A stretch of DNA of 64,000 nt from Marsupella aquatica (taxonomy: Eukaryota > Plantae > Marchantiophyta), in assembly GCA_973895155.1 (NCBI GenBank), contig OZ316894.1, positions 14,808,599 through 14,872,598 of the forward strand, read 5' to 3'. Positions 27,536 to 64,000 of the stretch are shown in pieces. The notes beneath the pieces are model-generated. The model was not told where the DNA came from, ran no database searches, and saw nothing but the letters and a program-made list of their open reading frames with translations. Within the stretch, counting starts at the first letter, position 1. The number at the start of each line of letters is the position of its first letter. A program made the translations under genes and the position numbers.

Positions 27536-27547
27536 GGTCCCAATCCA

Positions 27548-37299: not shown

Positions 37300-38955
37300 G
37301 GAGTCCTCATAATGTCCTGGCCCCACCAATGTCATTATTAAGTCTTAAGTACGTTTTGTCTCAAAGTGAGTTCAAAACGTCCTTGGCGGCTCAAGATCCT
37401 TGTCATCTCAACCATTCATGTGCCAAGGATTGCGAGGACTGCCATCCCAGAATCCCAGTCCTTTTTGCACATTTTGGTACCCCTCAATCATGCTTTCCAC
37501 CAGCTTGAATCACTATCACCCGCTAATGTGTCCAGACCAGAGAGATCAACCACTCTTGTAACAGGATCTTCAGAAGTTGAGGGAATGAAGGCAAAGTCAA
37601 TTCTGTTGAGGTTTTTTCTTTTCAAGCCTTGAGTATTTGGTGTGGTTATGAGAACAGTGCCATGCCAATGGGAGTCTTATGGCGAGACAATCCCAGTTGC
37701 AGGTCCCTTCCTCTTCATTGACTTTGTCACTATATCTTCGTTAAGGGGATGAGTTCTTTCCAAATCAAAGTCCGCCGCATTGGAAAGAAGCATATTGGTC
37801 GCATCTTCAAATAACCTCGACAAACCTGCTTGATTGGCGGAATGGAACGCCAATTCCCATATAGTTGGCCCCTTTTCTCTGTTCAACCCTTTTTGGTATG
37901 CACTATATCCCGCAATTTGCGATAGAGCATGGTTTGATCAACTTTGCAAGCTTAAAAAAGACCAACCTTTTTCTTCATAGCCCATGCTTTCATAGAGGCA
38001 TGCCTTGATTCTAACACTGTACAGTTGGGAATCAAGGCACCTTCTTCTGCGCTTTTGCTCTACCATAGTACAAATTCAACAATAAGTGACATTCTATTAC
38101 CAGCGCCTGGCGCTATCAAGGACAATTATGTAATATAGACATCAAATACAATTTGAATCTCTGACTCTTGAAATTTGTTGACATATGGGCTTCAATGTAT
38201 TGCATTCATTGTTTCAACATGTGAATTACGTGAAAATAAAACCAGTGTCTGGCGCTAGTCTAAAGTTGATGTACAATGACAGACAAGAGAGGAGATATAT
38301 ATCATACCACTGGAATAAAATTCCCCCACTGGCGCCAACAAACAACCCACCAGGATATCCAGCTTTTTAGCATCATGAGCTTTCCTGGTACACAGTTTCC
38401 TGATTGCCACCACACCACAATCTATCGAGACACCTGATACACCACCACAAACATTGGAGCATTTCTTAGTTTCTCCCACAACCTCCGATGTTCCGATTGA
38501 CATTTTTCCAATACTCCTTCCTTGGAATGTCGATGAAAAGATTGATAAAAGTAAAATGCATCAGAGCGCTCTCGCTCCGGGGCTGGGTGTCCACCAAAAA
38601 AACATTGTGGACAACATTCCATCCCACTTGTGCATTGTCCACCATAAACCCTTGGATGACAACATCGTATAATCCATTTTCCTTGCAAACCTCTATCGTA
38701 ACTCTCCAAGCCTTTTCAAAAGACTTGGTGTCTTCACCTTTCAACTCACATGTGAAAATTGTACAAAGAGCACGGAAGTTATGGTCGTAGACGTGCGCAC
38801 TAAAAGTAAACCAATCGGTTGTCACAGGACGCATGACATCAAAACTCACCCAGGCTCCTTTGAGTCTTCCACCCGGTTGCATTTGCCGCAAAAGATCTAC
38901 ATCGGAACCATGACCCTTCATGGTCATTTTGGAGATGTGAGGCCTATCGTCTTGA
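37300..38955 (-). pseudogene. Mutator-like (MULE) transposase remnant, cut by the CACTA insertion at 38956
   Basis: WVSFDV...AHVYD...CELKGED...GFMVDNAQ..WN resembles a MULE DDE core; frameshifted. Confidence 0.55.
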
Positions 38956-41900
38956 CACTAGTAGAAACCGGGGTAATTTAGACCATACCTTATAGGACTA
39001 AGCCCACTAAGTCCTTCTTCCATACTTTAAATGACTCGCATCCATTGCCAAGGTTTTGTTAAAGACTATAAAAGACTTTGAGTGTTTTCATCTTTAGTTA
39101 AAGACTATGAAAAGTAACCTTGCTACTTTGTGAAGGGTGAACACTCTAGGACATCATGGGTTTTGTTCTTGGAATCACTCTAAAGGTCCACACAAAGACT
39201 AGTATAATACAAAGTCTTACAAGGGTTCATGATAAGAGTATACTTAAGAAGGACCGGCGACATGCTACTTTTTGGCCTAAGTGCTTAAGGACATGCCTTG
39301 TATATATCACCAACCTTAACTAACATTGCACCGTAAATATCCATGTAACGGGTACTTTTCATAACTTAGGGTACAACTGTACTGGAGGGCTTAGGGTGGT
39401 TTCTAACCGGAACCGGAACTAATGCATCACTATAACCCTAGCTAGGTACAACTCCCACACCATGATATATTCCGCATTGCCAACTAGTGTCATTTTAATA
39501 GGGTCATGGCCACTAATTGGCACAATGAACAGTCTAGCCCGTGATTGATTTTAGTCTAAATGATGGTGCCTTTTGATCCAAGATTAATTCCACAAGGGGG
39601 GGGAGGGTTAGGGTGGGGCACAACTAATTAAGTGGCCATGACTTTGTCACCAAAGGATTTTATTTAAAGTTATCCTTAACCCGTGTTAGTTTTGTGTCTT
39701 TTGTTGCCTAACACTCTAGCGCGGACGTACTTATTATGCTCAACGGGTCACCTCAACGGAAACGAGCTTACATGACTGCTTGCACTAAGTCTTGGGTTAG
39801 GGTGACTGTGCTTTGGTCATCATAGCAAATTAGGAATATTGCATTTTAGGACTGGATTTAATGTTGGGCAACCTTAATCCTGATTATGGCACAATAGAAT
39901 GCCACTATGTGCCGACCATGTATGTGCAAATATGACCATTCATTGCCTTCTTAGGGTAATTTGCCAGGCCATTTTTGCCTTGTTGGAGTCCACTAGTGTT
40001 TACAGAACATATGCTTCTGTGCTCAACGGCTCACCCCAACGGTTAGGGCTTTGTAAATTCCTTCCCCTAATTCTGTTTAAGGGTTTACGCTTAACTTTTG
40101 GGCCGGACTAAACTACATGGGCAAGGCGCGGGAGAATTCTTCGTGACTTAGTGGTCGAAACAAGGTGGTGGGGTCTTGGGTTGGGTGTTCGGGGTTTTGC
40201 CAAAGGGTTTTTCATTGACAATGAGCTTTCTCGATCAGTCCAAGCGTCATGCTGCTCTAAGTGTATACACTCTTGCCATCCCGAGCACCTCACGCGAGCT
40301 GTGAGCAGTTGCATCCTCCTGTTGTAAGTGCATTGATCTGCCAAGCGTTCAAATGCAAAGCTGCTAGCGTCTACTCCCTGTGCTGGTTGAATGTGTAGCG
40401 CTGTCTTGTGACGATTGAAGATTGCCCCTTACCTTTTACCGCCATCGCTGAATGCAGGATCGACCCGAATATAGCACCTGTGCAGAGGCATTGGGTGAAC
40501 ATAGTGAATGCCGTTTGTGTCTTGTGCAAGGTTGTGGGCCTAACGTTCGTGAGTCGTGAGCTGCAGACTACATGCGACTCCAAAGGAGGCATTGGGGAGG
40601 ACACGGTGAAGCAACAAGGAGCGGCGCGGGAGCTTAGAGTGGGCCAACGCTAGCTGAATCCAATCCAGGAGATGTTGCGCTAAGGTGAGACTCTGAGTTT
40701 AGGGTTGCTTCAGTGTCCAAGTAGGTTTTCTCTTTGCGTCGGCAGCTAGAAGGTAAGCTCGGGGGCTTTACAAAGGGTTAGTGTTGCGGACTTTCCCTCC
40801 TGGACGTTGCGTGTCTTCATTTGCAACTTGTTTGTGGACCTGTGATCCTGAGACTGTCAAAATTGTTGTGGCCGCACCGACAACTTGACGACGCATTTTG
40901 TGGATGCACCGTTAGTAATCGCGACTACAGCTCTCCAATGATTGCACTTACCATTTTTGACCACCTTGCATGATGTCCATCCGTGGGCTGGACCCCAGGG
41001 AGTAGATTTTGGTACATTTCAGTAGATTTTGTCTATGCCCCCGGTCCTCATTTTGTGCAATGTCCGCCTGGCACTTGGTTCTTGATCCCTACATTGTCGT
41101 CTGCCGCTCGGCTGCTTGCGGAAGGGATCAAACAGATTGGAGGTCACTGTGGACTGACATTCAGGCCTGGGTCAAGCAAGGAGGTTAGAGTTGAAGTCGC
41201 CTATGCTTGGCCTTCTCTATTTTCTCTGCTTGCCACTGCCTCTATTGTTGCTTACCATTTGCAGCTGGTGAAGCTGCATGCGGGTTGCATCTATTCTACG
41301 GGCGCGCTACGGGTGTTTTATGGATTGTGGACTTTATGTGGTGCGAGAATCGGTAACAACATGAACCGGACTTTTTTTACAGTCTTGGAATGTGCGTGAG
41401 CTGTGAAGGTTGCGCTTCAGAGCTGATATTCCTGTCGCCGCCTACTCCCATTGTTGTGTGTTCGTAACGTTGTGGATCGTAACGTTGGAACTCGGAGCTG
41501 AGCTGCGCACTGTCAACCATCAAGCGCTGTTGCGCGTTGTCAACCAAGAGGAGATGCCGCATCCCACATTGAGTTGAACATTCAGCTAGGGACCTGAGCT
41601 GCGCACTTTCAACCATCGAGCAACGACCAAGCTTGGCAGCGCTCTGGGATTTATCGGCCACATTGACAAAGCAGAAGACAGAGGTGAGTGTTCGTGCACC
41701 GTTAGAGTAACCGCGAGTACTCTATTACATGCCTTGTTGTTCTCTATTACATGCCTTGTTCTCCCGTCCACTGTTTCCTGCGATTTTCTTTCTTCCAGAA
41801 GATAATGGTGATTTCTTCTTCAATCAAACAAAACCCCACCCAACCACCACCCAAGAACGTGGGGTGTGCGCTACTTAATCCTCCTCAAACTGGCCCATTG

Positions 41901-43952
41901 TTCATTGAAACCCCATATATTACCGCCCGGCACCAAGGGACCAGTCCCAACCTGTCTTCCGCTTGCCACCCTCTTCACTCTCTCGCACATCTATCTCCCG
42001 ATATTTCATGCATAGCCGAGCCCACCGAAAGCTCTCTCCCTACAATCCCTCCCAAATCAACTTTCTCGTTTCCTGCTGCTGCTGATGTATGTTTGTTCTC
42101 CCCTATTTTTGTTTACTGAATTTGGTCTCTCCACACTTCTTGCTTGACATTACTGTTTTTCTCCTCCCTGGATCCAAACATGCCTTGTGCCCCGTGCTCC
42201 GACTTGCATCCTTTTCTTTACTAAGGGGGGGACCACAGCCTCCAGCCATACCTTGGATGCCGGGCCTGGTCAAGACGGTGGTCGGTAGCTCGTTTTTGTT
42301 TTTTTCTCTTTTGTTTCCCAAGCTTCTGGGCAAGGGCATTACCATTCTGGATTCTCCGCGAGGCGCCACTAGCTTTTTTTCTCGGTTGCCCGTGTGCCTG
42401 CCTTCTTAGTTTTGTTTTTTCCTCAAGTGACCAGGCCATCGCTGTATGCAGATTTTTCTTGTTGTATTCATATACAGTATTTTATTGTTCTATCTAGGCT
42501 GTGGCAAGCCAACAAACTGTTGACAACCAACATGGAATAACAACTATGCAGTGCAATGGCAGAGGACACTGTCCAATACAGGAATGACATGGTTATGTTT
42601 TCAATTCCCTGCTTGGATGAGGCGTGGTGTTGCTTGTAATCATGTATTTCTTCACACTAGAAAAGCAGTCTGTCAGATGAGGTTGTCGGGATTGTCTGTG
42701 GGTCAGTCATCTTACGGACACCTAGCAACGTCAAATGAATGGCGGAAACGGGCCATGTTGTCATTTTGAAATTTGTCTTTCCTTTTGCCATGCTACCCAA
42801 TCACTTTGTTAGTCCATGAGTCATAGATTCATAGATTCTATGTTTTGTGCTTTGTCTAGAATGCTATGGCGCCCATGCTACAATTTGTGGTTTTTGTCTA
42901 AGCACAAATCCTCTCTGTGCCTGGTCTCTGTGTCCCGTCATTTGGATTGATTGTGCAGACGTTTCCTCTTCTCCCAGTCCTTGTCATCCACCAGCCAAAG
43001 CACATTGGATTGTTTTCAAAGGAGGGTTGTGTAGTTTGGAGGGTTTGATCTATGCAGCAGAATTGAGCAGATTGGCGGTTGTTAGTTTCTTCTTGTAAAA
43101 CCTGTCTGTCTTTTCTGCTTTTGGCCATGCTCCTTCACTTCTTGCTGCAAGCTCAATGTGCTTCAGCTATGGCAATATTCACTTACCCTATCCCAACGGC
43201 ACTGCCATGAGCTGTAGGACAGCCAACAGAAGCAGATTGTATCGATTGCATGTAAGTCAGGGTATTTTATGTATTGCGGAACAACTGTCCAAGTATGCTG
43301 CAATGGTCGGTCTTGCGCAGCTGAATGAGCCAATTTCATTTTCCCTGTGCACTTCTATTTCTCAGAGAATTCCCTGGTCATGCTCATTTCCCCCAGAGTT
43401 AGAAAACAAAGAAGAAGAGCTGACTAATTGTAATTCCAATCCATATCCTGATCGGTCAAGGATTGTTCACTACATTGGCCTTGTCATTGGCCGAGGTCAC
43501 CAAATTTTGCTTGGTTTCATTCCTGTGGAGCACTGCTGTGATGGATTTGTCGTAGCATTCTGCAAACTCTCACGGTTTGCTTATGGCCATTATTTGCAAT
43601 TTGCTGCTACTAATATGTCTTCTTCTTAGCAGCATACACCAGAAGTAAGCAATAGTGGAGGTTTAACTGCACATCAACACATCTAGTGAACTACCTCTCT
43701 GCTGCTCACTGGAGGGTGAGACTTTCACTCTTTTTGGATATTGTAGTTTGTAAGCAAGTTGATTAGGAGTGTTTCATGCTATGTTTACACTGTGACCCCT
43801 AGCTGGAACCAATGGAATGACACAGTGAGTGGGAACTGATAATTTAAGGTTGGTTGCTGTTGGTGAGGCAAGTACAGCTCCTGCTCACCTTGCTGATCGA
43901 AGGTGCTTATCAGAGGACGTGAACACACGACATCTCCACAAAAGCAACACTT

Positions 43953-44402
43953 ATGGTGAGGACCCGCAACGCTGAACATGTGCGGCTTGCACGCAAGGCA
44001 GAGATGTTGCGCCTTGAGTATGTCAGACTTGGGATCCTTCCAGCCCAGTCTGCATGGTACTTTGAGTACCCAGTTGTTGCTAGGAACAACTACAGCCAGC
44101 CTGTACCTGCTTCTCCACCCTTCCCAACATCCTTGGTATTTCTGTCTCTTGTACATGACCCGCCACAAATTAGGGCCCAAGGGTGTGTGCACAGTTGCCA
44201 ATATGACTGTCTTGCCTGTAGGGCTTCTGGCCTAGAGTTGGATGACCGTTCTCTTGGATGTCAGTTTTTTCACAGAGCACAATGTATTATCTGGAACCAC
44301 TCGCCATCCTGTAGTGTGCCTGGTGATGTCACTTGTCCTGCCCTCCCAGACCCCACCACCGGTCACTTTGGTGTCTACACATGTTTGGATCACACGCTCT
44401 AG
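43953..44402 (+). CDS. Unknown Cys/His-rich 149-aa protein, cargo copy A
   Basis: Intact ATG-stop ORF; clear homolog at 56708-57160 (GC.HSCQYDC.ACR, CI.WNH, CPALP). Confidence 0.75.
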   Translation: MVRTRNAEHVRLARKAEMLRLEYVRLGILPAQSAWYFEYPVVARNNYSQPVPASPPFPTSLVFLSLVHDPPQIRAQGCVHSCQYDCLACRASGLELDDRSLGCQFFHRAQCIIWNHSPSCSVPGDVTCPALPDPTTGHFGVYTCLDHTL

Positions 44403-45071
44403 AGGACCACTTGTCACACCGCATGCACAAACCAAAGACCATTGACCTATAACTTAACACTTTGACTTGAACAGAGAGGATATTTACTTAAGATTTTGAA
44501 TTATGACCAATTTTGGGTCCAGGGTTTAGGGTCAACAGTACATAACTTATCCTATTATGGCTGCACTAAGTACAATATCCTAATTTAAGAGGCTAGCAAG
44601 CTCACTTAAAAGTCTCCTTTCAAAGATTGGAATTAATGGGCCATGTGATAACCTGGAAAAAGTGATTTATGCCTAACTTATTTGTCTCATTCACTATCAT
44701 AGCCTATTTAGGATGTATAAATTACAACCCTGATCACACTGCTTGATACCAATCCTGTTCAAAAAATGCCTGTTTTACATGTCACGACTGTTATATGTGA
44801 TTCAAATGCATTAAATCTTGTTGCAGATCTCCTTTGGTGAATCATAGCCACAAAATTGAGGTGTAGGTAAAGCTATTGTACGAGGGGATCAGTTTTTAGT
44901 GTGGGCTCAACAAACCAAAAAGTATGTCTACTCTGCACATGTGTGTGAACATTTCATTGCAGTAGCAATTGCCACTCTAGTCTATATGCTACACTGTACT
45001 TTTTGTACACTGCACTAAATTGTATTGTCTGTGCACTCTGCTAAATTGTACTATCTGTCTCATGCGTAGGC

Positions 45072-45752
45072 ATGGCACGCCCTAAAATCCGAGCCAAGAA
45101 GCGAGGGACAGAGGTGAGCAACACAGGTGTAGTTGGGCCAGATGGTAGTAACTTCTCCGCAAGTCAGATTTTCCAGAAGGCAGCTCATTGTTGTGCCATT
45201 TGTGACGATGGTGGTGGCTTAGCCATATGTGAGGGCCCTTGCATGAGACATTTCCACCTCAACCCGGAGTCTGACCTTGCTGCAGAAAACAACTGTCCAG
45301 AGGTGGGCCTCCCGTCAGCACACTAGGGAGGCTGGATGTGCACTGATTGTTTGGAGAAGCAGGCTAAGTGTGCACAGTGTGGGAAGTTGGGGTCTTATGA
45401 GGGCTCTATTGATGCTCCACCACTTGTTAGGAAATGCCCTGACAGATATTGTGTGAGGTTCTTTTGTTTTTCATGTTTGCCCGATCTTGCCACAGCTTGC
45501 CCACTTCATAAGTGCAAGGCATGTGGTCAGCAGGATGAAGATTTTTGGGTGGACATAGTCCACTGTGTTAGGTGTCCCACCATGTGGCACTTTCATTGTT
45601 TGAAGGAGCGTCAAGCAGAAGGCTATGCTTGTGACAGACACATCTATGATCACTCTGCACATGGTGTTGATCGATGGATCTTCTATTGTCATCGCCATGC
45701 CATAGATCCTACTTTGCACACTCCCATGAGAGATCACATTTCTTGGCTTTGA
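45072..45752 (+). pseudogene. Stand-alone EDM2/NSD-type PHD finger cassette, copy A (one in-frame TAG at 45324)
   Basis: CAICDDGG.L..CEG.C.R.FH, CPLHKC..C, CVRCP..WH..CL and FYC..H.ID..L.TP.RDHI match the EDM2 PHD region as I recall it. Confidence 0.85.
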
Positions 45753-46350
45753 ACCTGAATAATGTACATGCATAGTGCACCTGATGTGGATACCTTGGAG
45801 ATTGCAGACATTCCAATTTTGAGAAGAAGGACCTCTGTAGGAGAGGATGCTTAGGCAACAAGTACCCTAAGTTCATTACTTGTTCCTGGGTACATGCCTT
45901 CAAAAACTCCCCTTAAGCCTTCTAGGAACTTTTTTAACTCTGCAATCATTTTGATCACGACTTACATGACACTGCTTAAATTAAATCAGGACTTCTCATT
46001 ATGAGCATATAAGTTACAAGGCTATTTAATTTGCGAGAATTCCCTTAAAGTGTACCAACATTTTGTATTCTCATTGAATGTCTGCCCATTTACAACATCT
46101 GTATGTGGCATCACAAAACAATTGCACTTGTCACCTTCAATATTGTGAAGGCACATATTCAAACTATGAGGTGCATGCTTGCAGGTGTCTAGTACGTTTG
46201 TCCCAATATTTCTCCCGTTTGGAATCGGAGCAGAGACTCACCAGACGATTGGACTGGACCAAGTTATAAACGCAGCATTTTAAGGGCCCTCCGATTATCA
46301 GGTGAACGCATTATCTTCCGGTCTACAGTGATTAGGTGGCCCGTGTGTAC

Positions 46351-47202
46351 ATGGCCTCTAGGAAACGTACAAAGGTTGACCACCCACCTCTGTTGGCTGG
46401 AATCAAAGCCATTTTGATTCCTGGCCACTATGGGTTCACCCAAGTGAGTTGGCCAATCGTACAAAAACGATTCTCAGAGTTCCATGGGACTGAAGTCAAG
46501 GACATCACTCCACAAACTACACATGTTGTTGCGGGGACATGGCTGGATGTGATGAACAAGTGGTCATGGTCCTTCATTGATTCTGCCATTACCAACCAAG
46601 GTCTAAAAGTAGTTGAAGTCTCTTGGCTGACCGATTCTGTTAAACATAGGTGTGTACAGAGTACTGAGCAATATGAGTTGTGGGAGAGTGTCAAGGAGGC
46701 CACTGCAGAGGCTTTGGCTGAAAAGGAAGCCTATGAAGCAGCGGAAGAGAAACCCAACTTTGCTTCTGTCCAATATGGACCTGTTGTCAACATAGGACAC
46801 CATCCTATGCGTGCAGATGCTATATTGAATGAGCATGGCAAGGAGAGAAATACCATTATGAAGGGGTTCAGTGTGGTATTTGCAGAAGAAGGAATTGGGG
46901 AGACTAAGTGCAGACTGTACAAGTCTATAGTTGTTGAGCTAGGTGGAACAGTGGAGGAGAGTCTAATAGAAACCTCCACTCATGTTGTAGGTCTGTCATA
47001 CATGAAAATATGCAGAAAATTCTTTAAGACAATAGTGTGTGATTTTGTCATGAACAACAATCTTTGGGTGCTTTCCCCTGATTGGCTTCTGGAATTAGCA
47101 GCTAGAGGGAAGCGACAGAATGCTTGGGACTTTGATATTTTTGAGGCCTGGCCCTCCAAGATTCAGCGGAGATGTATGCTTAGCAAAGGTGGGAGAGAGT
47201 GA
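46351..47202 (+). CDS. Tandem BRCT-domain protein, 283 aa
   Basis: Two BRCT repeats: G.EV...TTHVV...VVEVSWLTDS and LGGTV...STHVV...VLSPDWLLE; intact ORF. Confidence 0.8.
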   Translation: MASRKRTKVDHPPLLAGIKAILIPGHYGFTQVSWPIVQKRFSEFHGTEVKDITPQTTHVVAGTWLDVMNKWSWSFIDSAITNQGLKVVEVSWLTDSVKHRCVQSTEQYELWESVKEATAEALAEKEAYEAAEEKPNFASVQYGPVVNIGHHPMRADAILNEHGKERNTIMKGFSVVFAEEGIGETKCRLYKSIVVELGGTVEESLIETSTHVVGLSYMKICRKFFKTIVCDFVMNNNLWVLSPDWLLELAARGKRQNAWDFDIFEAWPSKIQRRCMLSKGGRE

Positions 47203-47378
47203 GGAGTAGGAGTCCCTCATATTTTTGTATAAATCACAATTTTGTAATAAATATGATCCTTGAACTAACTCATCTTGTCATGGTTGGTCGCAGTTGAAGT
47301 GATTGTTGTTTCCTGCTGCGTGGGGTGTGACTGTGAATCTACTTGCTGGGCTCTGTTTGGCTGAAGACTTTGGTGGGT

Positions 47379-47912
47379 ATGCTGCCTCTTCCAGACCGTC
47401 AGGCCCTATGTAGGGTCCTCCTACGGGTTGCATCGTGCATGGCTACTGCTTGGGCTTACTTGTGTGGATTGGTAACCAGACAGAGTGTAGCTCCATCCGA
47501 GATAATGCCTGCAGACCTTGGATGTGTTGTGAATGCTGTGGTGAATGAGGATGCATAGTCAGAAGAGGACATTTACTTTTCAGCAGATGAGTTAGACAAG
47601 CACGATGCTGTAGGTGGTTCCTTGTTGCCTGATTTGGCAGATGATATAGTTCTTACACATGTCTGGCCGAGGGTTCTTGTGGTGTCTGGCGCACAAGATA
47701 TCTGCAAATATAGACTAATTAGTACCCAGTGGAGGGACTTGGTAGCAACATGTGCACCATGGAGGGCACTGCTGCCACTGCTTGTAGGCACGGATCGAAG
47801 ACCACCATGGCATGAGCAGGGTTTAGACCTTGATGACTTAATGTACATGCCTGAGTACCTCAGGGCTGAGTGGCATCGACAACAGGATTGGTATCCGTAT
47901 TTGATGTGGTAG
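47379..47912 (+). pseudogene. F-box-like protein
   Basis: LPDLADDIVL.HVW.R...RLISTQWRDLV F-box pattern; in-frame TAG at 47556. Confidence 0.55.
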
Positions 47913-48238
47913 TAAGATGAGGACATCTCACACCGGTCTCGCACTTGGCACCTGTGTCTATGACTATACATGATTGGACTCTGATATGGTCATGGATGTA
48001 CGTGCAGAGGCAGTACATGTGAGGACAGCGGAGGAGTTGACACCCTCAAACATTTAGGAATTTTGTCTCATTCACTTGAGAATAGGTACATGACTCAGGC
48101 ACCTATATTTTTTGTTTTTTTGTTTTTTTGGAACGTTACGTATTTTGGCAAGTACAGTCGGGGGTGAAATCCTTAACAGGAAGTGTATTTTTCACTTGCA
48201 TAATAAAATGACAGGGTGCTGAGTGCGTGTGTATAGTG

Positions 48239-49301
48239 ATGGCTCCAAGGTTGCCTCTTCACAACCCATTTAGGATTAGGCATCATGATTCTAAATTGTG
48301 GATGCGTGAACAAGCCCGGACCGCCCAAGGTAGGAGTAGGAGGATGAGATGCCCATGCACACAGTGCCAAGGATTCAAGTCGTTGAGTTTGAACACTGTG
48401 CACCTTCACCTGCTGCGGCATGAAAGGCACCCTCGGTGGAGGGTTTGGAATGTACCAGCAGAAGAAGACTCCTCTGATGAAGAGTGGAGAGCTGACTTTG
48501 TGGATTCTAATACAGCTAGGCGTAGAGACTACACGGTCTCAAATTGCACACTTCAACAACAAAACAGAGCTTCGTGGCCCACCACAGAGGGTCACCAGAG
48601 AGCAAGTCCTGAGGTGGGCAGCCAGGAAGGCTGATTGGGACAAGAGAAGTGCCACTGATGGAGAACCTGAGGATCCAGTGGTGAAACACGGTGTGAAAAG
48701 ACAGACCTTGATGGACTTGGAGTTGGAGTACTGGAGGGTAATGTACTTAGCCTCCAGCCCCTGTATGATTGCAATTTTAGATTGGAAGCAATGGTGGATT
48801 GATGTTGGTTACAATCCTCCTATGTGGTTAATTAGTGTTTCTGTTGTTGAATTCTTTGCTTTGTGGAGTGCAGGAATTCGAGCCCAGCAAACACAATGTA
48901 GACGTCATGCACATTGAGAAAAATATTTGTGAGAGCTTGCTGAAGTTCTTGTCGGGTGAGAAAGATACAGGAGCAGTTTGAGCTGATATGCAACAGAAGG
49001 GGATTCGCCCTCACCTTTGGTTGAAGCCCCATGCAAGCAATCCCAATGTACTTCTCAAGTTCCAAGCTCCCTATGTGTGCACACAGGATGAATGGAAGAC
49101 ATTCTTGTATAGATTGAGTTGTCTGAAAGTGCCCTCTGGCTATGCTGGTGCCTTCAAGAAGCATATTACAAAGAATAAACTTGGCAGTATGAAAACACAT
49201 GACTACCATGTGTTGATGCAGCACATTCTGCCCCTATGCCTCAGAGGTCTCATGCAGAAACCAGTCCGTAATGTCATTCTTTGACTGTGCAATGTATTTC
49301 G
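48239..49301 (+). pseudogene. CACTA (Tnp2/TnpD-like) transposase, internally deleted and truncated
   Basis: RCPC..C...HL..H transposase-associated domain, DVMHIEKNICESLL, LKVPSGYA, MKTHDYHVLMQHILP (DUF4218-like). Confidence 0.9.
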
Positions 49302-50332
49302 CCCACAAGAAGAAAACCTATGTTTTACTACTACAGGCCTTGCAACTACTTTGCCTAAACAACTCATACGTGGTGCCAACCACTGTTTTTTTAATGGGTT
49401 GTAATAATCTGCATTTTGTGACTCTAATTAGAACTATGTTACCTTAATCACTAATTACAACTCTTTTTTTTGCCACTAAAACTTAGATCACTTTAATTAG
49501 AGTTGTATATTATACAATTTTCAAATCACTACAATCCACCGTCCATTACACCGTCAATGTTTACAACTCTATTTTTAACTAAGATTTTACTACTGGCCAA
49601 AAGCACTACAAATACAAGTACCACCAATATTTGAATGGTAAAGGTGTTTTTTCAATCAACTCCCAATCAAGTGAATCTTTTCCAAGTGATCTTAATTACT
49701 TGAAATAATGTCATTTGTGAGCACACCTTTTGTTACTATAAATATCACCAATAGTGGAGTCATAAATGAATTTTGGCAAAATCACTTAAAATATTTTAGT
49801 GACAAGGAAATTCTTACAAACAACATAAGATTGAGTGAATTAATTGTCAATGTACAAAATCTCTTTAAGTAAAGTCATTATTATCACAAATTTTCTGACT
49901 AGAAATGCCACTAATATTAGAGTCCAATAAATATTATTTGATGCAACTACAAACCAAGTGCCACATCCTCTTTTGGTCCAAAATCACTCTAAAGAATGTT
50001 ATTCTCTTCGCACATTTTAGTGACTCCAAATGCCACTAAGAGTAGAGTGTCAATGGAGGGCCTTGCAAATGACTTGAAATGAAGTAGATCATTTTTCATT
50101 CTCAGAAATCACTATGAATAATGTCATTCTTTAAATATATTTTGCAACTACAAATGCCATCAACATTAGAGTGTCAGAACAGTTTTGACAAATGACTGAA
50201 AATTGAAAGGATTATTTTGTGATGTCCAAATCTCTCCCAATGATGTCATTAGCAACACACATTTTCAGCCACGATATGCATGCCACCAAAATTACAGCGA
50301 TAAATAAATTCTTTTTTACAAATTGTACCAAA

Positions 50333-53127
50333 ACCACTGCAGAACATGTAGTTTGAGGGTTTTGGGCACTTGTCACTTGAAATACCACCATGTTTTGAGT
50401 TGGGAAAGTTATGTGTTTGAACTTCCAATCAAGTGCATTGGTAAATACCAGCGCAACCACTTAACATAAGGTCCTTTCGGGCTCTCATCTTCTTGCAACT
50501 ACAAACTGCATCCATATTTGAGTGATACAACACACATTGGTGCGATCATTTGCCATGAACTAGTGCTAAAAGGAGTGAATTGTGTGGATGCATCAAATAA
50601 GCCTCATATTTGTAATTCTGTAGAGTCTTGGAGTGATTTGTGTGGAGTTCATGATGTTGCATCACTTGGGTGCCTCAAATATCTCCACCTTGGCAATTTA
50701 TGCATCACAATCTCATTGTCGTTGCTATAACTAGTTGGCACACGTGATGGGGCTGTCCCATGGGTTCACCATGGGGGAGCTAACACGGAGGAATTGTGGT
50801 GGCGGCGGGCCCAGCCCTCCTCCTTTAATCGTGACCCTGCGAGAATTGCGGCAAGGTGGATCCACTTCTCATTATCCATTGTAAGTCTGTCACTCCGGAA
50901 ACCACTCGAAACAATGTGCTTTAAAGCTCTCATTTCTAGCGACTAACATTGTCACTCAAGCTGGGGTGGTACATCACGCATCCTTCTAAACAACTTCTCA
51001 TGAAGTGGTAGTCCTAGGATGATTGGGGGGCAAACCACTACAAATGAGGTGGTTTTAGGGTTTAGGGCAAATGCAACTTAAAATACCACCTTTATTTGAG
51101 TTGAGAAATAAATTGGGTGCAAACACTTGCAATGAAGTGTATTTATATGTACACGCCCAATTGATTTGAAAAAAGGTCCTTTCAGGCCCTCGCCTTTTGG
51201 CGACTACAAATTGCACCCATATTTGAGTGATGCAGCACACTTTAGTGTGATCCCAAACCATGAACTAGTGCTAAGAGGAGTGAATTGTGTGGATGCATCA
51301 AATAAGCCCCATATTTGTAATTCCGTAGAGTCTTGGAGTGATTTGTGTGGAGTTCATGCTGTTGCATCACTTGGGTGCCTCAAATCTCTCCACCTTGGCA
51401 ATTTATGCGTCACAATCTCATTGTCGTTGTTATAACTAGTTGGCACACGTGATGGGGGTGTCCCATGGGTTCATCATGGGGGGGCTAACACAGAGGAATT
51501 TGTATGGCGGCGGCCCAACCCTCCTCCTTTAATTGTGGCCCTCCGAGAATGCCCGCAAGGTGGATCCACTTCTCATTATCCATTGTAAGTTTGTCACTCC
51601 CCAAATCACTAAAAACTATGTTCTTCAAAGCCCTCATTTCTAGCAACTAATACTATCACTCAAGCTGGGGTGGTACATCACGCATTCCTCCAAATAACTT
51701 CTCTTGAAGTGGTAGTCCAAGGGTGATTGTTGTTCCCCACTACAAATGAGGTGGTTTTAGGGTTTAGGGCAAATGCAACTTAAGATACCACCTTTATTTG
51801 AGTTGAGAAGTAAATTGGGTGCGAACACTTGCAATGAAGTGTATTTATATGTACACGCCCAATTGACTCGGAAAAATGTCCTTTGAGGCCCTCGCCTTTT
51901 GGCGACTACAAATTGCACCCATATTTGAGTGATGCAGCACACTTTAGTGTGATCCCAAACCATGAACTAGTGCTAAAAGGAGTGAATTGTGTGTCGCATC
52001 ACATAAGCCCCATATTTGTAATTCCGTAGAGTCTTGGAGTGATTTGTGTGGAGTTCATGCTGTTGCATCACTTGGGTGCCTCAAATCTCTCCACCTTGGC
52101 AATTTATGCGTCACAATCTCATTGTCGTTGTTATAACTAGTTGGCACACGTGATGGGGGTGTCCCATGGGTTCACCATGGGGGGGCTAACACAGAGGAAT
52201 TGTTATGGCGGCGGCCCAACCCTCCTCCTTTAATCGTGGCCCTCCGAGAATTGCCGCAAGGTGGATCCACTTCTCATTATCCATTGTAAGTTTGTCACTC
52301 CCCAAATCACTAAAAACTATGTTCTTCAAAGCCCTCATTTCTAGCAACTAATACTATCACTCAAGCTGGGGTGGTACATCACGCATTCCTCCAAATAACT
52401 TCTCTTGAAGCGGTAGTCCAAGGGTGATTGTTGTTCCCCACTACAAATGAGGTGGTTTTAGGGTTTAGGGCAAATGCAACTTAAGATACCACCTTTATTT
52501 GAGTTGAGAAGTAAATTGGGTGCGAACACTTGCAATGAAGTGTATTTATATGTACACGCCCAATTGACTCGGAAAAATGTCCTTTGAGGCCCTCGCCTTT
52601 TGGCGACTACAAATTGCACCCGTATTTGAGTGATGCAGCACACTTTAGTGTGATCCCAAACCATGAACTAGTGCTAAAAGGAGTGAATTGTGTGTCGCAT
52701 CACATAAGCCCCATATTTGTAATTCCGTAGAGTCTTGGAGTGATTTGTGTGGAGTTCATGATGTTCCATCACTTGTGTGCCTCAAATCTCTCCACCTTGG
52801 CATTTTGTCACAAACCTCATTGTCGTTGCTATAACTAGTTGGCACACGTGATGGGGGTGTCCCACGGCTTCACCATGGGGGGGCTAACATAGAGGAATTG
52901 TTATGGCGGCGGGCCCAACCCTCCTCCTTTAATTGTGGCCCTCCGAGAATTGTTGCAAGGTGAATCACTTCCCCGTCCACTTCTTATTATCCTTTGTAAG
53001 TTTGTCACTCCCGAAACCACTCAAAACAATGTGCTTCGAAGCCCTCATTTTTAGCGACTAACATTGTCACTCAGGCTGGGGTGGTACATCATGCATCCTT
53101 CTAAACAACTTCTCATGAAGTGGTGGT
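50333..53127. repeat. About 701-bp tandem repeat, 4 units
   Basis: Homologous landmarks at 51055, 51757, 52458; units carry TTTAGGG-like, CACGTG and CCATGG-palindrome motifs. Confidence 0.95.
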
Positions 53128-56100
53128 CGCTACTACCATCACCTAGTCAGTAGTGATAAATGACATAAATGTTGTAATTTACAAACAACTTACAATCAAG
53201 TAAGGGATGGAGAGCTTGTAAATCCCACTACAAGTGATGTAGTATCGGACTCTCACCAAAGTGCAGCAACTATGTCACCAACATTTGAGTGATACATTGC
53301 TTAAACCACTTGCCACCAGGTAGTGGGTTCGGAGGGGACTGGCAAAAGCACTTGGAATGTGGTGATTTTCCGAAGTGCGAGCCATTACATTGCCAAAGAA
53401 GTTTAGTGAATGGTGCCAAGGGTAATTAAAACATAGAGAAAATTAAAACAACATCCTGGCCGGAACATGGTTTAGGGTACATAGAAGCTTGGGGTTTCTA
53501 GACACTCAGCGTATCTCTCAATGCAAGGGAGTGTCATAGAAAATGTATTATTTTGTAGCACCACTAGCATATATTACTTCTAAAGCTTTGTATGATTTAC
53601 ACAATTTCAAGGAGTAAGGTATTAAAATTGGCAATAGACAAAAAGTGATTCACATAGGGTACTCTAGAAATGAAAATGTGGGTTTAATTAGGATAAATGG
53701 TTGGCATTAGGACCCGCATTAGGACTCACATGGATAATGTCATTTCTCACTTTAAAAAGCATTGCGAGAAATTAAATGTTTACTACCCAAGTAATTATAC
53801 CACCTAGGTAACATTGTTGGTGGCATATTGGAAGTTCTTCATTTTTTGCACCACTTTGAAAGAGCCAGGTAGTCACCACTTAGCACTTATTTGTAGGGGT
53901 TAGACAAGTGGCAACGTTGGGGTGAAACTACATTAAAAAAAACCTGGGGGGTGAGTGGGTTGGCTTTATAACATAAGGGATGGATGGGATGGCCTGGGGG
54001 CTTGGGGTGTAAATTCAGATGGCTAAGATCACCCTCATCCGATGGCTGAGATCACCCTAGGCGCTTCCATGTCAGAGTAAGTCTAGAGTACGGGTTCGCG
54101 CCAAACGGCTATTTGCACCCGCCTTACGTTGGATGAAGAGTTGCAGCGTTCCACTTTTCCGACAAAGTATCGAGGTGAAACGCTGAATGTTGTGGTTACT
54201 CTCTAGCACAAAGGGTTTAGGAGAAGAGAGCAAAGGGGTTTAGCAAGGACCTTGCACTGCTTTTTTTGCCTCCAGAGCTGTGGAGTTTAGGGCTGCGATC
54301 GCACCTCATGGATTGAGTTTGTGGAGTGCGAAGCTGCGGGAGTGAATGTGGGCACGGTGCACTGGAGTTAGTGCTGCAATCAAGGCTCGTGGCTTTTTTC
54401 TAAAGTGGAGTGCAGAGCTGCGCGGGGGAGCTACGGGAGTGCGAAGCTACGGGAGCACAGAGTTGTGGGAGTGCGCGAGTGCGGAGTGTGGGAGTGGCAA
54501 GAGCTGCAGAGCTACAGAGCCACAAACTGTGTTTGAGTGCAGAGCGATTGAGTGCGGAGCTGTGATTCAGCTGTAGCCTGTCGGAGTTCAAACAGAGTGC
54601 ATTTCCCCACTGGAAACGTCGAGGCTAATCGGGCATTGTCAGGTTTTGGTGCCAGAGTTGTGAAGGAGCAGGGTTTTCGGTACGTTGGACATTGGCGCCG
54701 CGTGGTGGGCACTGACTCTCCAAACTCCTTGTCAGCGGTATTGCGGAGCTGGGCAATCTGCAAGAAGGGAGACAGGCAAGCTGCAATAGTGGACGTCGAC
54801 CTACAATGCAGGTTGGAGTTTCTAATTAGTCACCATTGCTGGGATTTGAGCTCTCATTTGCTTTGGGCTATTTGTCAGAGTCGTAAATGGCTGAGCATCA
54901 TTCCACCAAGCTGATTTCCGTTGAGCTCATTTGTGGATAGTGGACCTATTGGTTCACATTGGAGTTGCAAAGGAGCTGGCCAGAGCAGCTCGGGCCGTCA
55001 CAGCTTGTCGGCAGCATAGGTCACAGCTCGGGGGAGGGTTGCCGGTCGGACCTTGGCGCTGCGTGGTGGACACTGGACCTGCCAAACTCCTTGTTGGCAG
55101 TTGTCAGCTTTCATCTGGCTCAACATACTCGCCACTCATTTGTTTGTCAGCTTCTTTCACTTCCCGGCCATGCCCTTGATTTCTTTCAGCTTTCCCAAAC
55201 AGAGCTTACTTGCTCTCTGCTCTCTGCTACAAGTCCGGGTCTGAAATCAGCTGTTTGTCTTGTTTGTTTTGTGCGAGGGCTTCCCAAATGTATTGTTGAG
55301 GCTGTATTGCAGATTAGACCATTACATTCTCGATCCAATAGACCCCTTTGAAGCAATCAATCTGAAGCAATCAATCTAAAACCTTCACAGTTTCTCTAGG
55401 AATTCTTGTCGTCTGCTCATCCTATGTGCTCATTCTCTCTCTTCCTCTCTCTGTTTTGTGCATTGCCTTGTTTGGCAGGGCGCCTATTGTGCTCTGCCTC
55501 GGATGTACCTGTACTGTCGTGGATGTGCTTGCAATATAGCAATAAATAACCTGCCCATGCTGATGATGCGCCTCCACAGACCCTTCCCTCCTTTTGTCTC
55601 TTGGAACACTATCGAATCATTGCTGGTCTGTAAGGCTTACTTCAGCATACTGGTCACATATTGCTTGCTGTTTGCTATAGATGAGTACATAATGGAAGAA
55701 TGAAATACTCTTTAGTCTTGTCATTTAATAGTCTTGTCCTCTCCACGTCCCGGGTTAACTGTTTAAATAGAGACTAATGGTTCACAGTTGAAATAGAGAC
55801 AAACTTGTTTTGTTGTAGAGAAGAAGCTCTTTACTTGCTATACTAGTAGCAGAGTTCTGTCTGTCTTGATCAATGCTACCTACTATCTGGCTTGCTGTCC
55901 GATTCAATACTCTGGTTGCGCTGACATACGTGTATCCGACTTTGTGGTAGCTCAAAGCCAGTGACGTTCACACTCTTGACCTTTGTCTGTTTTTGCTGGG
56001 GCAAGATTGCCGTAAAGTTGTTATTACTGGCTGAAAGGTTTACGTCTCCAAATTTACATTGAGGTTCTACATGTAACAAGTAGGCTACTGCCCCCCTTGG

Positions 56101-56707
56101 TCTTTTGTGGACAATGCTATTTTATTGGCGCTATCCTTGTCATTTGTGCTTTTTCTTGAGGGTTCTCTCATTGCCGCCAATTGGAACACCTCAAGACTTT
56201 TCTTACCAGCGAGGGCGTGAATCATGCACCATGCCAAGCCCCTGAAGTGAGATCTCACTTCATTGTCTCGTATTTCCGTGGATGTTTGTAAATTTTCATT
56301 TTTACTTTCTTGACGATCCTGTCATTTTGGTCAGGAGTGGTCACTCTGTTTCAAGGTCTGTTTTGAGTTTCTTCATCTTGTCTCGTGCTGTTGCTTCTCT
56401 TTCTATGAATCTTGGATCAATGCTACCTGCTCTCTAGGTCGGCCTCCTATTCTGTACTCTGGTATGGTTAATGGAGTCTTGTTTGTGTGCGCGGTAAATA
56501 GAATTACCAATTGTTGGCATTGGGAAAGTCTTGAGCCTGTCTAAGCTTGTCCTTTAAAACGTGAAGGGATTCATCCCTGTATATAAACTGAAATTCAGGG
56601 TCAGTCATGAAATCTCCAGTTTTTTAACCATGGTCTTATAGTTTCAGGAGCGAGTGGACCTGCTGTGGACGTGAGCAAAGCAGCACAGGACGTGATCAAG
56701 AATAGCT

Positions 56708-57160
56708 ATGGTGAGGACTCGCAGCGCTCATTCTCAGAGTCTTGCAGGCACCGCAGAGAGATTGCGTCTAGAGTTTGTCAGACGTGGCACATGGCCAGCC
56801 CACTCTACATGGTATTTTCGTTATCCAGTTGTAGTGCAGAATGACTACAGCCGGCCTCCACCTGTGGCATTACCCTTTCCCACATCCGTGGTGTATGTGT
56901 CACTTATTGGCAAAGTGCCACACGTCAAGGCCATCCTAGCGCATGGATGTATCCATTCTTGCCAGTATGACTGCGTTGCTTGTAGGGTGGTGAACCCAAC
57001 AACCCTGGTCGGTGCTGACAAAGCCGCTAAACAAAGTAGGAGGATATGCATCCTTTGGAACCACTTTGCATTGTTGAATGGTGTGGATAGTGATCTCGGG
57101 TGTCCTGCCCTGCCAAACCCCGCTATTGGGGGTTTCTCGGACACATCATGTTTGATTTGA
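56708..57160 (+). CDS. Unknown Cys/His-rich 150-aa protein, cargo copy B
   Basis: Intact ORF homologous to 43953-44402. Confidence 0.75.
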   Translation: MVRTRSAHSQSLAGTAERLRLEFVRRGTWPAHSTWYFRYPVVVQNDYSRPPPVALPFPTSVVYVSLIGKVPHVKAILAHGCIHSCQYDCVACRVVNPTTLVGADKAAKQSRRICILWNHFALLNGVDSDLGCPALPNPAIGGFSDTSCLI

Positions 57161-57918
57161 AGTTAGTTTACACCTGCAGGAATTCTAACACAGTACGCAC
57201 GTACCAAGATGCAATGAGATAAGGCATATTTTTGGATGAAATAGTAACTTAAACACTGAGAAATAACTTATGCTTTGACTTTTTCTATATATTCGTACAA
57301 TTTTGTATTGAGGGTTTGAACACCTCAGTGGAATTAAAGTTTTGAAGTACATTGCAAAACCCCTATCCACTAAGCACAACATTTTAATCTAAGATGTCAC
57401 CAGTCCACTCAACATCTCTGTTCAATGACTCTGTTCCAGAAGGCCCACAATCTATTGCTAAATGAAAGTTGAATCCAATAGTTAAAGTCTCTGTCAATGA
57501 CTCCCACTCCCCCCTGGCAGATATGCCTTATGGCTCTAGATCGGGTACAGTGAATGAAGAAAGTTGAAGAGTGTCCATGTAATGTTTGTCCATGCATAGT
57601 CCTTGCCAACTCAAACCAGTGCTCTGTGTAGTGGCTCCATTTAAATGATATTTTGTGTCACATTTGTGCTGTTGCAGATTATGAATCCTTGTTTTTACAT
57701 CTTGTGACGTGAGAGGGGATTGAGATCTACATCTGAAACCGATCAAGGCAATCTCCAAATTTCATTGCCTTCCTCTTGGTTGAGTACAATTGGTGAGTCC
57801 TCTACATTCTGGCCCCACATTGGATTGCAATATGCAAGTGGTAAGTACGTGTTTTATGACAGCCAATTTAACAGTTTAATAACTCTTCAAGTTTTCTTGT
57901 TCATGTCCAGTGGTCATA

Positions 57919-58571
57919 ATGGCTAGGACCAAGCATAAAGCCAGAAAGAATGATACTCGAACGAAAAAGGAGGAAGATGTGTTGATGATTGAATTGTGGT
58001 CAGACGTTGAGAAACGTCAGTGTAGTCCCCAGCTTTGTGGCATTTGTGACTGGCATGGAGATCTGGCCATGTGTGATGGGGCTTGCCATCGGCACTTCCA
58101 CCATGTTTCCAAAGTTGGTGAGGTTGTTGGCAGGTGCCCTGCTGTATTTATTGCACCAGGCAAGGATGATGATCCTTGGTATTGTCCAGAGTGTAAGGAT
58201 AAGACATACAGGTGTTTTCAGTGTGGCATTGTCTCTACTACTGCCAGGCAGTGCCCCCATCCATATTGTGTTCGTTTTTATTGTCATGGATGCTTGCCAC
58301 TTGATGTGGAGTCTTGCCCCATCCATACATGTGTTGCATGCCAGCAGGACCATGGTGACCCTCATCTGCCAGAGGCCGTGAGTGTTTGAGATATCCCAAA
58401 ACTTGGCATCGTACTTGCCTAGCCGAGAGTAAGCATCAAGGTTTTGCATCGGACAGAGTGCCCTGGCATCATACTGCACATGACCAGGGACGTTGGATGA
58501 TTTACTGTCCTGACCATCCTATTGACCCTGCTCTAGGCACAGCGGCTCATGATCACATCTCCTGGCTTTGA
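57919..58571 (+). pseudogene. EDM2-type PHD cassette copy B with an H3-tail-like N-terminus; frameshift near 58385
   Basis: MARTKHKARK start; CGICD..GDL..CDG.C.RHFH, CPIHTC..C, IYC.DH.ID..L.T...DHISWL. Confidence 0.8.
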
Positions 58572-59141
58572 TTCACCTGGTCCATTTTGGTTCAAATACA
58601 TCATTACTATTGTAGACATCGATACAGTTAGTTAATCAATGGAACAATGATGTTTTGTCATAATCACACATTTTGTGAACTGTGTGAATGGTTAGCACAA
58701 GCATGGAGACAGTGCTCCCGGTTTAATTGACTAAGGCTTCCTAAAACATCTAAAGTACTCAAACTTTATTTATTTGACATCTAAAGGACATTGTTTGATA
58801 TGCACTTTAGCATGCACGATCTGTTACGTCTCCAGTTCCGCAATTCTGAGCTTGGGGCGAAATTTCACTTCGAGTTGGAAGGGAAATTGGCTGCGGTTTA
58901 AGCTCAGACTTTGCCAGAGCATTGGAAACAGCGAGAATGTATCACTGGCAAAGTTAGAGCTGCAATCGACATCGTTTGGTATGCACTTTAGCATGCACGA
59001 TCTGCTACGTGTCCAGTTTTGGGATTCTGAGCTTGGGGCGAAATTTCACTTCGAGTTGGAAGGGCAATCGGCTGCGGTTTGAGCTCAGATTTTGGCAGAG
59101 TGTTGCAAACAGCGAGAGTGTATCACTGGCAAAGCTTTGTG

Positions 59142-59912
59142 ATGGCAACGGAGGAGATTGCCCATCTCAAGGCTTTGCTTGAGAAAATCTTAGTTGTGGC
59201 TGAAAACTCCGCAATTGAGATTACCACACTCAGCAAGGAGGTGACGGAGCTAAAGAATGAGAATGTCAAGCAAAAGAGGTTGATTAGTGATCTTCGATCT
59301 CAAACTCAGGAGAATGGTAAGCAACTCTCATTGCTTGCATCGTGTTTTGGAGACATGGAGAAGAGTATGTGCCCAGAGAAATCAGTGATACATGAGACTG
59401 TAGGGGAGATTGAGGAGAAGCTCAAAACCTTTGCATAGGCTGCAAAACAATCACATATGGAATTTGTCCAAGCCAAGGAGGAGGAGAGGAGAGCACTAGA
59501 GGAAGAACACAAGAACCAGCATGCAAGAGTCAGCAACTGCAAAATATCAGGCCTTGTTGAGGAGGAGAAGGAAGACACCAAGAAGGTAGCAATTTCATTC
59601 TTCCAATCTCAGATGAAAGTGCATGACCCTATCATTTTGCAAGCATATAGGATTGGGCAAAAGAAGGGGGACCTTCCACGTCCAATCTTGGTGAAGTTTG
59701 CAGCTGAATCCGAGAAAGCTAGAGTGATGGCTAACAGGAGCATGCTTAAAGGGCTAAGGATTTGGTTGGATGATGATCTGACTCCCACACAAGTCCAAGC
59801 AAGGAAAATTGAGCTTGAGAAGGTGAGGGTAGCCAAAGACCAAGGATTGGTAGCCTACTTGCGCAATGGACAAGCTGTTGTTACCAATAAGAAGAGAGTT
59901 GTTTCTAAATGA
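59142..59912 (+). pseudogene. LINE ORF1 with one CAG>TAG stop at 59436
   Basis: Same protein as 27548-28318 with the stop at a different codon. Confidence 0.85.
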
Positions 59913-59924
59913 TGGATTGGGACC

Positions 59925-62900: not shown

Positions 62901-63736
62901 ACATCTCTTTGGAGCTTTGGTGAAACCAGTCATTCTTTATGGAGCACCAATTTGGGGAGCAGGTGTGTCTAAATCTGGGTGGCAACAGATTGAGGGGCTG
63001 CAAAAGCTATTTCTTGAGATGGAGCTTGGGATCAAGTCACAAACCCCATATACACTTACACTTGCAGAGGCAGGCTTGTTTCCTTTGGAGGTGGAGGCAC
63101 TCTTCCACACACTCAAATACATCATGCGTGTAAGAGAGTTGGAGGAAAACAGATTTCCTTTTCATGCCTTGCGCTCATCTTCAGCTAAAGGGTGGTATGC
63201 AGATGTGTGCAGGTGGGCCCATGCTTGGGGATTTTCCTGAACATGAATGGCCAACACACCCAACCAAGCTAAGAGCAAAACTTGAGCAAAAGGCTTTGCA
63301 CAAACTTTGGCATGAACCTAGCCCACGGCAGCAATACTACATGAGAGATGTGAACCCCATGAAGAAATATCGAGAACAAGAATACTTATCTAGCACTATC
63401 TCAGTACAACTTAGACAACTTATTGCTCAGTATAGACTAAGCTCACACCACCTTGAAGTAGAACAAGGGAGATGGAAGGATATTGACAGGAAAAAGAGGG
63501 TTTGTCAACTATGTGATAGCTCTAGTATAGAGAATGAATATCATGTATTCATTGCTTGCAAGTTTTATGAGGGGGTTAGGATGGCATCTCAAATCTTGGT
63601 GAAAGATTTGTATGCATTGTTTGGTCTGCCCCCTCAACAACTTGGAAGATATATCTTTGCGGTGGATAGGGAAAGGAGAATAGGTTTGGAAAATCTTTCA
63701 GGGCTCTCTAGGTCCATAGTTTCTTTGAGGACATAG
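59925..63736 (+). pseudogene. LINE ORF2 (APE endonuclease, reverse transcriptase, C-terminal CCHC), disrupted by the duplication and a 1-bp G insertion near 63230
   Basis: NYRTI, QAGFR, FVDFSKAFD, GVIQGCPLSP, FADD, YKYLG; RLSSHHLEVEQGRW...CQLC...ENEYH...C typical of RTEX-like elements. Confidence 0.92.
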
Positions 63737-64000
63737 TTGTCCTCTTCTGAGCAATCTCTTTTGGTTGCTCTTTTCTTTGATTGCATTGTACTTTACTTTT
63801 TGTGGCAGCTCCTTTGACTTTCATGGTCCCGGAGCTTATAATACATTACCATTACCATTACCATTACCAGTATAGACTAAGCTCACACCACCTTGAAGTA
63901 GAACAAGGGAGATGGAAGGATATTGACAGGAAAAAGAGGGTTTGTCAACTATGTGATAGCTCTAGTATAGAGAATGAATATCATGTATTCATTGCTTGCA

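Follow-up and report, generated by a model that had tools for sequence, protein, structure and literature searches.

A selected accessory gene module seen in two dead, nested CACTA-type transposons of Marsupella aquatica

Giant EnSpm transposons with cassettes of accessory genes are already published. Giant Plavaka elements (EnSpm/CACTA) of red algae carry the accessory genes PAG1-3 (bioRxiv 10.1101/2025.02.11.637652), fungal Plavaka elements carry TET/JBP (bioRxiv 10.1101/2025.02.11.637652; PMC12730594), and giant EnSpm elements with accessory genes are present in Ectocarpus (PMC12477816); in plants, VANC is the only case of demonstrated anti-silencing in the papers covered (PMC10398659; PMC13317346). 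Here we describe two nested elements, named A and B, in a stretch of 64,000 nucleotides from Marsupella aquatica (Marchantiophyta; contig OZ316894.1, positions 14,808,599 to 14,872,598 of the forward strand), referred to as the window. Both copies are dead, and the accessory module that they reveal, several genes of a CACTA lineage kept under selection, is real. Both elements carry an open reading frame (ORF) for a Cys/His protein, here named ORF1, and one for a PHD-finger protein, and A continues with three more genes:

43953..44402, plus strand: ORF1-A, 149 amino acids, intact; unnamed Cys/His family, likely zinc-binding
45072..45752, plus strand: PHD-A, 226 codons; PHD units of the NSD/EDM2 type, three in tandem, and no further domain; a premature TAG at 45324 is confined to this copy
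46351..47202, plus strand: tandem-BRCT ORF, 283 amino acids, intact; two Pfam BRCT stretches
47505..47912, plus strand: F-box-like ORF of 135 codons with an inferred start codon; weak F-box assignment; a premature TAG at 47556 is confined to this copy
48239..49303, plus strand: TnpD-type (CACTA) transposase; lacks its core (deletion at 48531/48532), has stops at 48979 and 49282, and is interrupted by B at 49303
56708..57160, plus strand: ORF1-B, 150 amino acids, intact
57919..58571, plus strand: PHD-B; frame shift near 58386, one ligand Cys changed to Tyr

The accessory ORFs are all intron-less and co-oriented with the transposase. ORF1 and the PHD gene stand in the same order in A and B and are 52% and 42% identical over aligned codons; by tblastn, ORF1-A matches ORF1-B at 48% over 149 amino acids (E 5e-35), and PHD-A matches PHD-B with an E of 1e-37. 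The ordered pair that an initial annotation had pointed out was thus recovered at the same coordinates. The same annotation had let A continue with BRCT, F-box-like and transposase genes on the same strand and had described the whole as a cargo shared by both elements: the BRCT gene and the transposase are in place and the ORF1-PHD pair is common to A and B, but the F-box call stays under threshold, and the BRCT and F-box-like genes are seen in A alone. In Pfam, the PHD ORFs match NSD-type PHD1, PHD and PHDvar, and the transposase of A matches Transpos_assoc (E 4e-5) at 24.2 bits, under the curated cut-off of 27.7; further motifs of this transposase presumably fit the TnpD type. A scan of the window revealed no additional copy of ORF1, PHD or BRCT, and no common coding region was detected between A and B upstream of ORF1.

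Like Plavaka, the elements of the window belong to the EnSpm/CACTA superfamily, reach high copy numbers with most copies degenerate, and carry a fixed cassette of several accessory genes, with chromatin-type domains and one gene without a known function; tandem repeats adjoin the cassette. The PAG genes, however, encode enzymes (methylase-SET, ParB-2OG oxygenase), whereas the cargo in the window consists of reader or adaptor modules (triple PHD, tandem BRCT, F-box-like, unnamed Cys/His protein), and A's transposase has a plant TnpD-type N-terminal domain. The VANDAL elements of Arabidopsis are likewise plant DNA transposons whose accessory genes act, or are proposed to act, against silencing, and they have tandem repeats as in B, but they are Mutator-like, and anti-silencing is demonstrated for VANC and a proposal for the proteins described here. 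A VANC-type Pfam match was found in none of the ORFs, the VANC sequences themselves being outside the comparison. EDM2 and NSD1-3 resemble the PHD protein in their tandem atypical PHD fingers, the last of them C4HC2H (NSD2/3 profile match E 2e-10); the proteins of the window differ in being PHD only, about 220 amino acids long, intron-less and carried on a mobile element, in a basic and possibly H3-like N-terminus, and in having no ELP/methyltransferase-like, PGR or SET domain. En/Spm elements share a CACTA-type end, subterminal repeats and a TnpD-type transposase (PMC3193017), and Pack-CACTA elements, which are non-autonomous, have a cargo captured from chromosomal DNA (PMC13317346); in contrast to both, element A has four whole, selected ORFs upstream of its transposase. 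This combination of accessory genes was not found in the literature covered, which leaves aside Repbase reports, subscription journals and bioRxiv supplements (the Plavaka element tables) that may hold similar ones; in PMC13547354, no passage on PHD, F-box or BRCT was found. By analogy, we infer that the module works like a Plavaka- or VANC-type cassette rather than being EDM2 or VANC itself.

Selection was estimated from the ratio of nonsynonymous to synonymous divergence (dN/dS) between A and B. For ORF1 the value is 0.57 (143 codons, bootstrap 0.36-0.86; other estimators 0.52-0.60), and for PHD, whose synonymous sites are near saturation, it is 0.28 (206 codons, bootstrap 0-0.50; other estimators 0.03-0.30); bootstrap values of the NG86 method are quoted because the maximum-likelihood dS is saturated for PHD. 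Both shared genes therefore lie under 1, which supports purifying selection on ORF1 and PHD and agrees with the long-term retention, rather than recent random capture, that had been argued from the first look at the letters. Among 72 PHD variants from four public runs, the 40 listed include 18 synonymous ones, against an expectation of 21-26% (p 0.009 and 0.0005); a ligand codon is altered in none of these 40, and no indel in the PHD ORF reached 30% among the variants listed. The DNA between the genes behaves differently from the genes, as had also been claimed. Comparing A with B, the two ORFs give local DNA scores of 135 and 41, the ORF1-PHD spacer scores 32 (100 shuffles: mean 21.9, maximum 30) and the upstream regions score 22 and 30 (shuffles 23.1 and 26.9), at or just above shuffled sequence; the sole spacer match between the ORFs is one 27-nt patch at 81%.

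Contigs of the public runs are free of the premature stops and of the transposase deletion found in element A. The TAG at 45324 in PHD-A is read otherwise in 96-99% of depth in all four runs, and the TAG at 47556 in the F-box-like ORF in 99-100% of depth in the three of four runs that cover the site. Two contigs of run X1 (depth 1817 and 1912) meet at 48531/48532 and carry at least 314 and at least 948 extra bases, so the transposase core is deleted only in the window copy. Depth in X1 is 1713 and 1978 for PHD, 1767 and 1806 for BRCT, 2084 for F-box and the same 1817 and 1912 for the transposase; it rises to 4747 in ORF1 (position 44098), is 658 at each of two sites in A's 5' region, and lies at 52-92 in B. 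Across the genes from PHD to transposase it is thus about 20 times that of B, bearing in mind that contig depth is no copy number and that one run may be the window's own source. This evenness is a strong hint, not proof, that the genes were amplified as one unit with the transposase. Taken together, A is a dead copy of an amplified, many-copy family with open genes. As a separate observation, synonymous divergence between A and B is far lower in ORF1 (dS about 0.75) than in PHD (1.8 or more), which together with the greater depth of ORF1 hints at gene swapping between families or at constraint at the DNA level.

Almost the whole window is mobile DNA, consisting of long interspersed nuclear elements (LINEs), remnants of reverse-transcriptase elements and transposase-like ORFs. 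Four layers are nested: a transposase-like ORF is cut by A at 38956, A by B at 49304 and B by a LINE at 58787. The outermost ORF (38466-38955), for which Pfam gave zero matches, is by its motifs probably that of a Mutator-like element (MULE). The layers and ends are as follows:

38466..38955, minus strand: transposase-like ORF, host site of element A; its open frame starts exactly at A's left end
directly before A's terminal repeat: TGA, a 3-bp candidate target site
38956..38968, plus strand: left terminal repeat of element A, CACTAGTAGAAAC; single occurrence in the window, 3 mismatches to the En1 repeat (PMC3193017)
38969..43952, plus strand: 5' non-coding region of A; varies among copies (many skip joints), CpG observed/expected 0.56
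directly before B's end: GCC, a candidate target site
49304..49316, plus strand: left terminal repeat-like end of element B, CACAAGAAGAAAA; starts CACAA, 2 mismatches to the En1 repeat
49317..53140, plus strand: subterminal repeats of B; degenerate units of ~125 bp, followed by four units of ~702 bp in tandem (50468-53140)
58787..63869, plus strand: LINE retrotransposon within B, with 5' repeats of 181 bp, an endonuclease, a reverse transcriptase and a CATTAC tail; conceals the rest of B and A

A terminal repeat beginning CACTA is present in A, and B deviates from it at base 4. Words resembling the En1 repeat, the sequence of which was taken from PMC3193017, are common in the window (14 plus-strand sites with at most 3 mismatches, 2 of them with at most 2). 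At the junction 49303/49304, contigs of two runs (six from X2, 11 from X3) depart from the window at 49303, among 24 listed of 1556 loose ends, and share one transposase-like continuation in which the transposase frame is kept. We regard B's end as real because this independently mapped junction coincides with the terminal-repeat-like word. Within the window, no inverse match fitted a right terminal end for A or B. No transposase of B lies inside the window, and a TnpA-like second gene would be sited past 49303, outside it. Of the CACTA family first proposed, an amplified CACTA-type family is supported, with the reservation that B's end reads CACAA and that a right end was not found within the window. 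Subterminal repeats are clear in B, and in A they amount to short pairs. Each ~702-bp unit of B contains CACTA-like words and a telomere-like TTTAGGG pair; the motifs occur in the window sequence, and we take TTTAGGG to be the plant telomere repeat. In run X3, B's tandem units and its ORF1 and PHD are far deeper than the DNA separating them, a pattern that hints at a sister family with a different middle. The LINE cuts B 215 bases past its PHD ORF, and both A and B are broken copies.

Relatives of the PHD protein were sought solely among proteins of length 124-396. Four were found among 90 candidates (P0006-P0009; 38-81% identity, 217-226 amino acids), all of them stand-alone ORFs with the same start and end, and together with PHD-B they form at least three lineages at about 36-41% identity. 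Three fingers can be read, a C4HC3, a Cys-rich middle unit and a C4HC2H, with 21 of 24 putative ligands identical across the six PHD sequences. The profile matches PHD1-3 of NSD2 and NSD3 (E 2e-10 to 1e-8), and the nearest Atlas cluster is NSD-type PHD, mostly Streptophyta (score 0.93). The ELP methyltransferase-like, PGR and proline-rich domains of EDM2 are absent from the five full-length sequences, all of which, within the length range searched, end past the third finger at 217-226 amino acids. The C-terminal tail and an insert in finger 1 we presume to be EDM2-like rather than NSD-like. C4HC2H is a hallmark of EDM2/NSD1 (PMC3776765); EDM2 has 2.5 atypical PHD repeats plus other domains, binds H3K9me2 and affects the silencing of transposable elements (PMC7529245).

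The first 22 residues of PHD-B gave a single PDB match, histone H3, the first 10 being 9/10 identical to chain 7d69_A with an E of 7.4, which alone is not significant. Compared with canonical H3 residues 1-9, PHD-B has 7 matches, PHD-A, P0006 and P0008 have 5, P0009 has 4 and P0007 has 2; six other N-termini compared in this way have 0-3. The lysines at H3 positions 4 and 9 are retained in five of the six PHD proteins. The basic N-terminus may resemble, weakly, the tail of histone H3, and this likeness is kept as a lead because a nuclear localisation signal explains a basic N-terminus equally.

A profile search with ORF1 over 1.84 billion representatives returned 11 matches: one already in the query, one false, and nine further clusters at 25-54% identity, none of them informatively named. 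The false match, P0016, is a bacterial Ig-like repeat protein. Residues P58, C78, H80, C86 and C89 are invariant in 14/14 rows of the alignment, and zinc is likely bound through the four Cys/His positions. ORF1 defines an unnamed conserved protein family, and Pfam gave only three weak single matches on the 14 members. The structure predicted from 14 sequences reached a predicted local distance difference test (pLDDT) score of 69, with an N-terminal helix and three strands near 90; the prediction from 4 sequences (pLDDT 38) was useless. Against the PDB and viral Foldseek sets the model had no match at E 0.001, and a wide search gave a best Z of 3.7, which is no proof of a new fold. The Atlas search returned no usable ORF1 match, and in the viral scan 0 of 42 candidates were confirmed. 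A metagenome locus (L001, 1 of 99 in a second scan) was discarded as a bacterial gene with a chance match of 28 residues.

The BRCT ORF contains two BRCT domains (Pfam E 8e-13, 48.8 bits against a cut-off of 21.3). It has one database relative, at 61% identity, among 738 candidates; a PDB search with the single sequence gave no match, and a metagenome scan with the alignment confirmed 0 of 222 stretches. For the F-box-like ORF the Pfam match has an E of 0.07-0.09 and 13.2-13.5 bits, under the cut-off of 20.5, and its sole PDB match is F-box/WD protein 11 (E 0.71).

Gene order, nesting, selection, co-amplification in depth and open frames in the family are observed. The reading that we prefer, to which we give about an even chance, is that A and B represent two diverged CACTA-type families, both as dead copies and one nested in the other; their accessory genes are under selection, and among these ORF1 and PHD likely form a chromatin-level helper. 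Element-borne helpers of this chromatin kind have precedents in VANC, in PAG1-3 of Plavaka and in TET/JBP. ORF1 and PHD would be a self-encoded helper that acts in trans and keeps silenced copies expressed, so that broken copies such as A and B would be bystanders. Like EDM2, the PHD protein would recognise H3 with repressive marks; as it has none of EDM2's other domains, it would serve as a tether or decoy. ORF1, binding zinc, would confer specificity for non-coding DNA or RNA of the element itself, BRCT may recruit or steer break repair at cut sites, and the F-box-like protein could recruit or titrate an SCF ligase.

Several points weigh against this reading. The dN/dS of ORF1 is only moderately under 1, and in its C-terminal third (last 55 codons) it is 0.72 with an interval that includes 1. 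Structure and Pfam searches yielded no known fold or domain that would back DNA binding by ORF1, and the F-box assignment of ORF 47505-47912 is weak. None of the contigs listed spans two ORFs, so the linkage of the genes in the family rests on even depth. CpG observed/expected in A's genes is 0.21-0.33, a depletion that suggests long methylation of the copies. The acidic residue that precedes the first Cys in AIRE PHD1, where it has a role in H3K4 binding, is missing from PHD-A in the alignment, so mark specificity may differ from that of AIRE PHD1. Finally, tandem repeats, which are the targets of VANC (PMC10398659), are present in B and absent in A.

The chief rival, unlikely but a serious contender, is that the module serves transposition, with the PHD protein steering the transposase to marked chromatin and BRCT repairing the cut ends, and no counter-silencing. 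RAG2's PHD steers to marked chromatin. Consistent with such a service, B landed in A and A in another transposase-like ORF, but one nested site in mostly mobile DNA says little about targeting. The weak resemblance of the tandem BRCT to those of ligase IV/BRCA1 (best E 0.008) and the shared orientation of all genes with the transposase point the same way; a physical link between PHD and transposase is nevertheless missing, and ORF1 and the F-box-like gene are left unexplained.

A bolder version of the helper reading, which we rate as somewhat more doubtful still, would make the module a counter-silencing kit of an old CACTA lineage's own: a stand-alone, EDM2-derived reader of repressive H3 marks with an H3-tail mimic at its N-terminus, a new zinc-protein family that provides specificity, and a single long transcript from which every ORF would be expressed after splicing to a shared leader, together a histone-mark CACTA counterpart of VANC. 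The mimic would be a bait for the host's histone writers, or a switch set by them. By eye, every ORF ATG has a YAG 2-60 bases away, and chance gives the same.

That the genes disturb or tune host pathways broadly instead of acting on copies of the element, as in the host-manipulation toolkit of the initial annotation, with a dominant-negative EDM2 fragment and an SCF decoy, appears improbable. The stripped single modules (PHD alone, BRCT alone and a short-tailed F-box) are indeed built like decoys. Host targets, however, have no support, a globally acting many-copy element would presumably harm its host, and the anti-silencing of VANC is sequence-specific (PMC10398659). Neutral Pack-CACTA capture of host gene pieces, which would hitch-hike with an amplifying element, is largely refuted and very improbable: such capture is known (PMC13317346), both window copies are broken and the ORF1 dN/dS is 0.5-0.6, but dN/dS is below 1 in both shared genes, the frames are open in the family, ORF length is constant across 38-81% (PHD) and about 25-55% (ORF1) identity, and the spacers have diverged past alignment. 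A segmental duplication of ordinary host genes lying among transposons, which right ends and target-site duplications not seen in the window might favour, is scarcely credible, given a depth equal to that of the transposase and ~20 times that of B, the lack of introns, unrelated spacers, relatives that are stand-alone single ORFs, and a start of B exactly at the break in A's transposase.

Other parts of the window hold further mobile DNA. On the minus strand, the MULE-like ORF is followed downstream by three ORFs (34629-36591), of which the last matches a RING finger weakly (Pfam E 0.04-0.1); A's host element may carry a cargo of its own. Three long plus-strand ORFs at 16408-19442 (296, 442 and 236 amino acids), for which Pfam gave no meaningful match, look to us like one DDE transposase with Cys-rich motifs. 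The LINE within B and a second copy at 25377-29080 are near-identical (99% over 1878 nt, inverted) and belong to a very young family with 5' repeats of 181 bp and CATTAC tails. A stretch of 607 nt is duplicated inside the right copy, and the cluster on the left has been rearranged. Short nested inverted repeats at 23985-24084 (30 nt, 97-100%) could form a hairpin. Minisatellite arrays at 19657-20079 (7/21 bp), 29246-29687 (21/42 bp) and 8167-8364 (22 bp) are probably subterminal repeats of other elements. A plus-strand ORF of 497 amino acids at 31384-32877, proline-rich at both ends and with no meaningful Pfam match, is likely an accessory ORF of another element.

In conclusion, only a few transposon proteins are known to act on host chromatin, and the module offers four small proteins, each with a single module and an open frame in a many-copy family, that can all be expressed and assayed. 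ORF1 adds a conserved protein family without a name or fold match. From a PHD-only protein of the EDM2 type one would learn how an element turns a host heterochromatin reader to its own use; genes limited to insertion or repair would nonetheless count as new cofactors of CACTA transposition.

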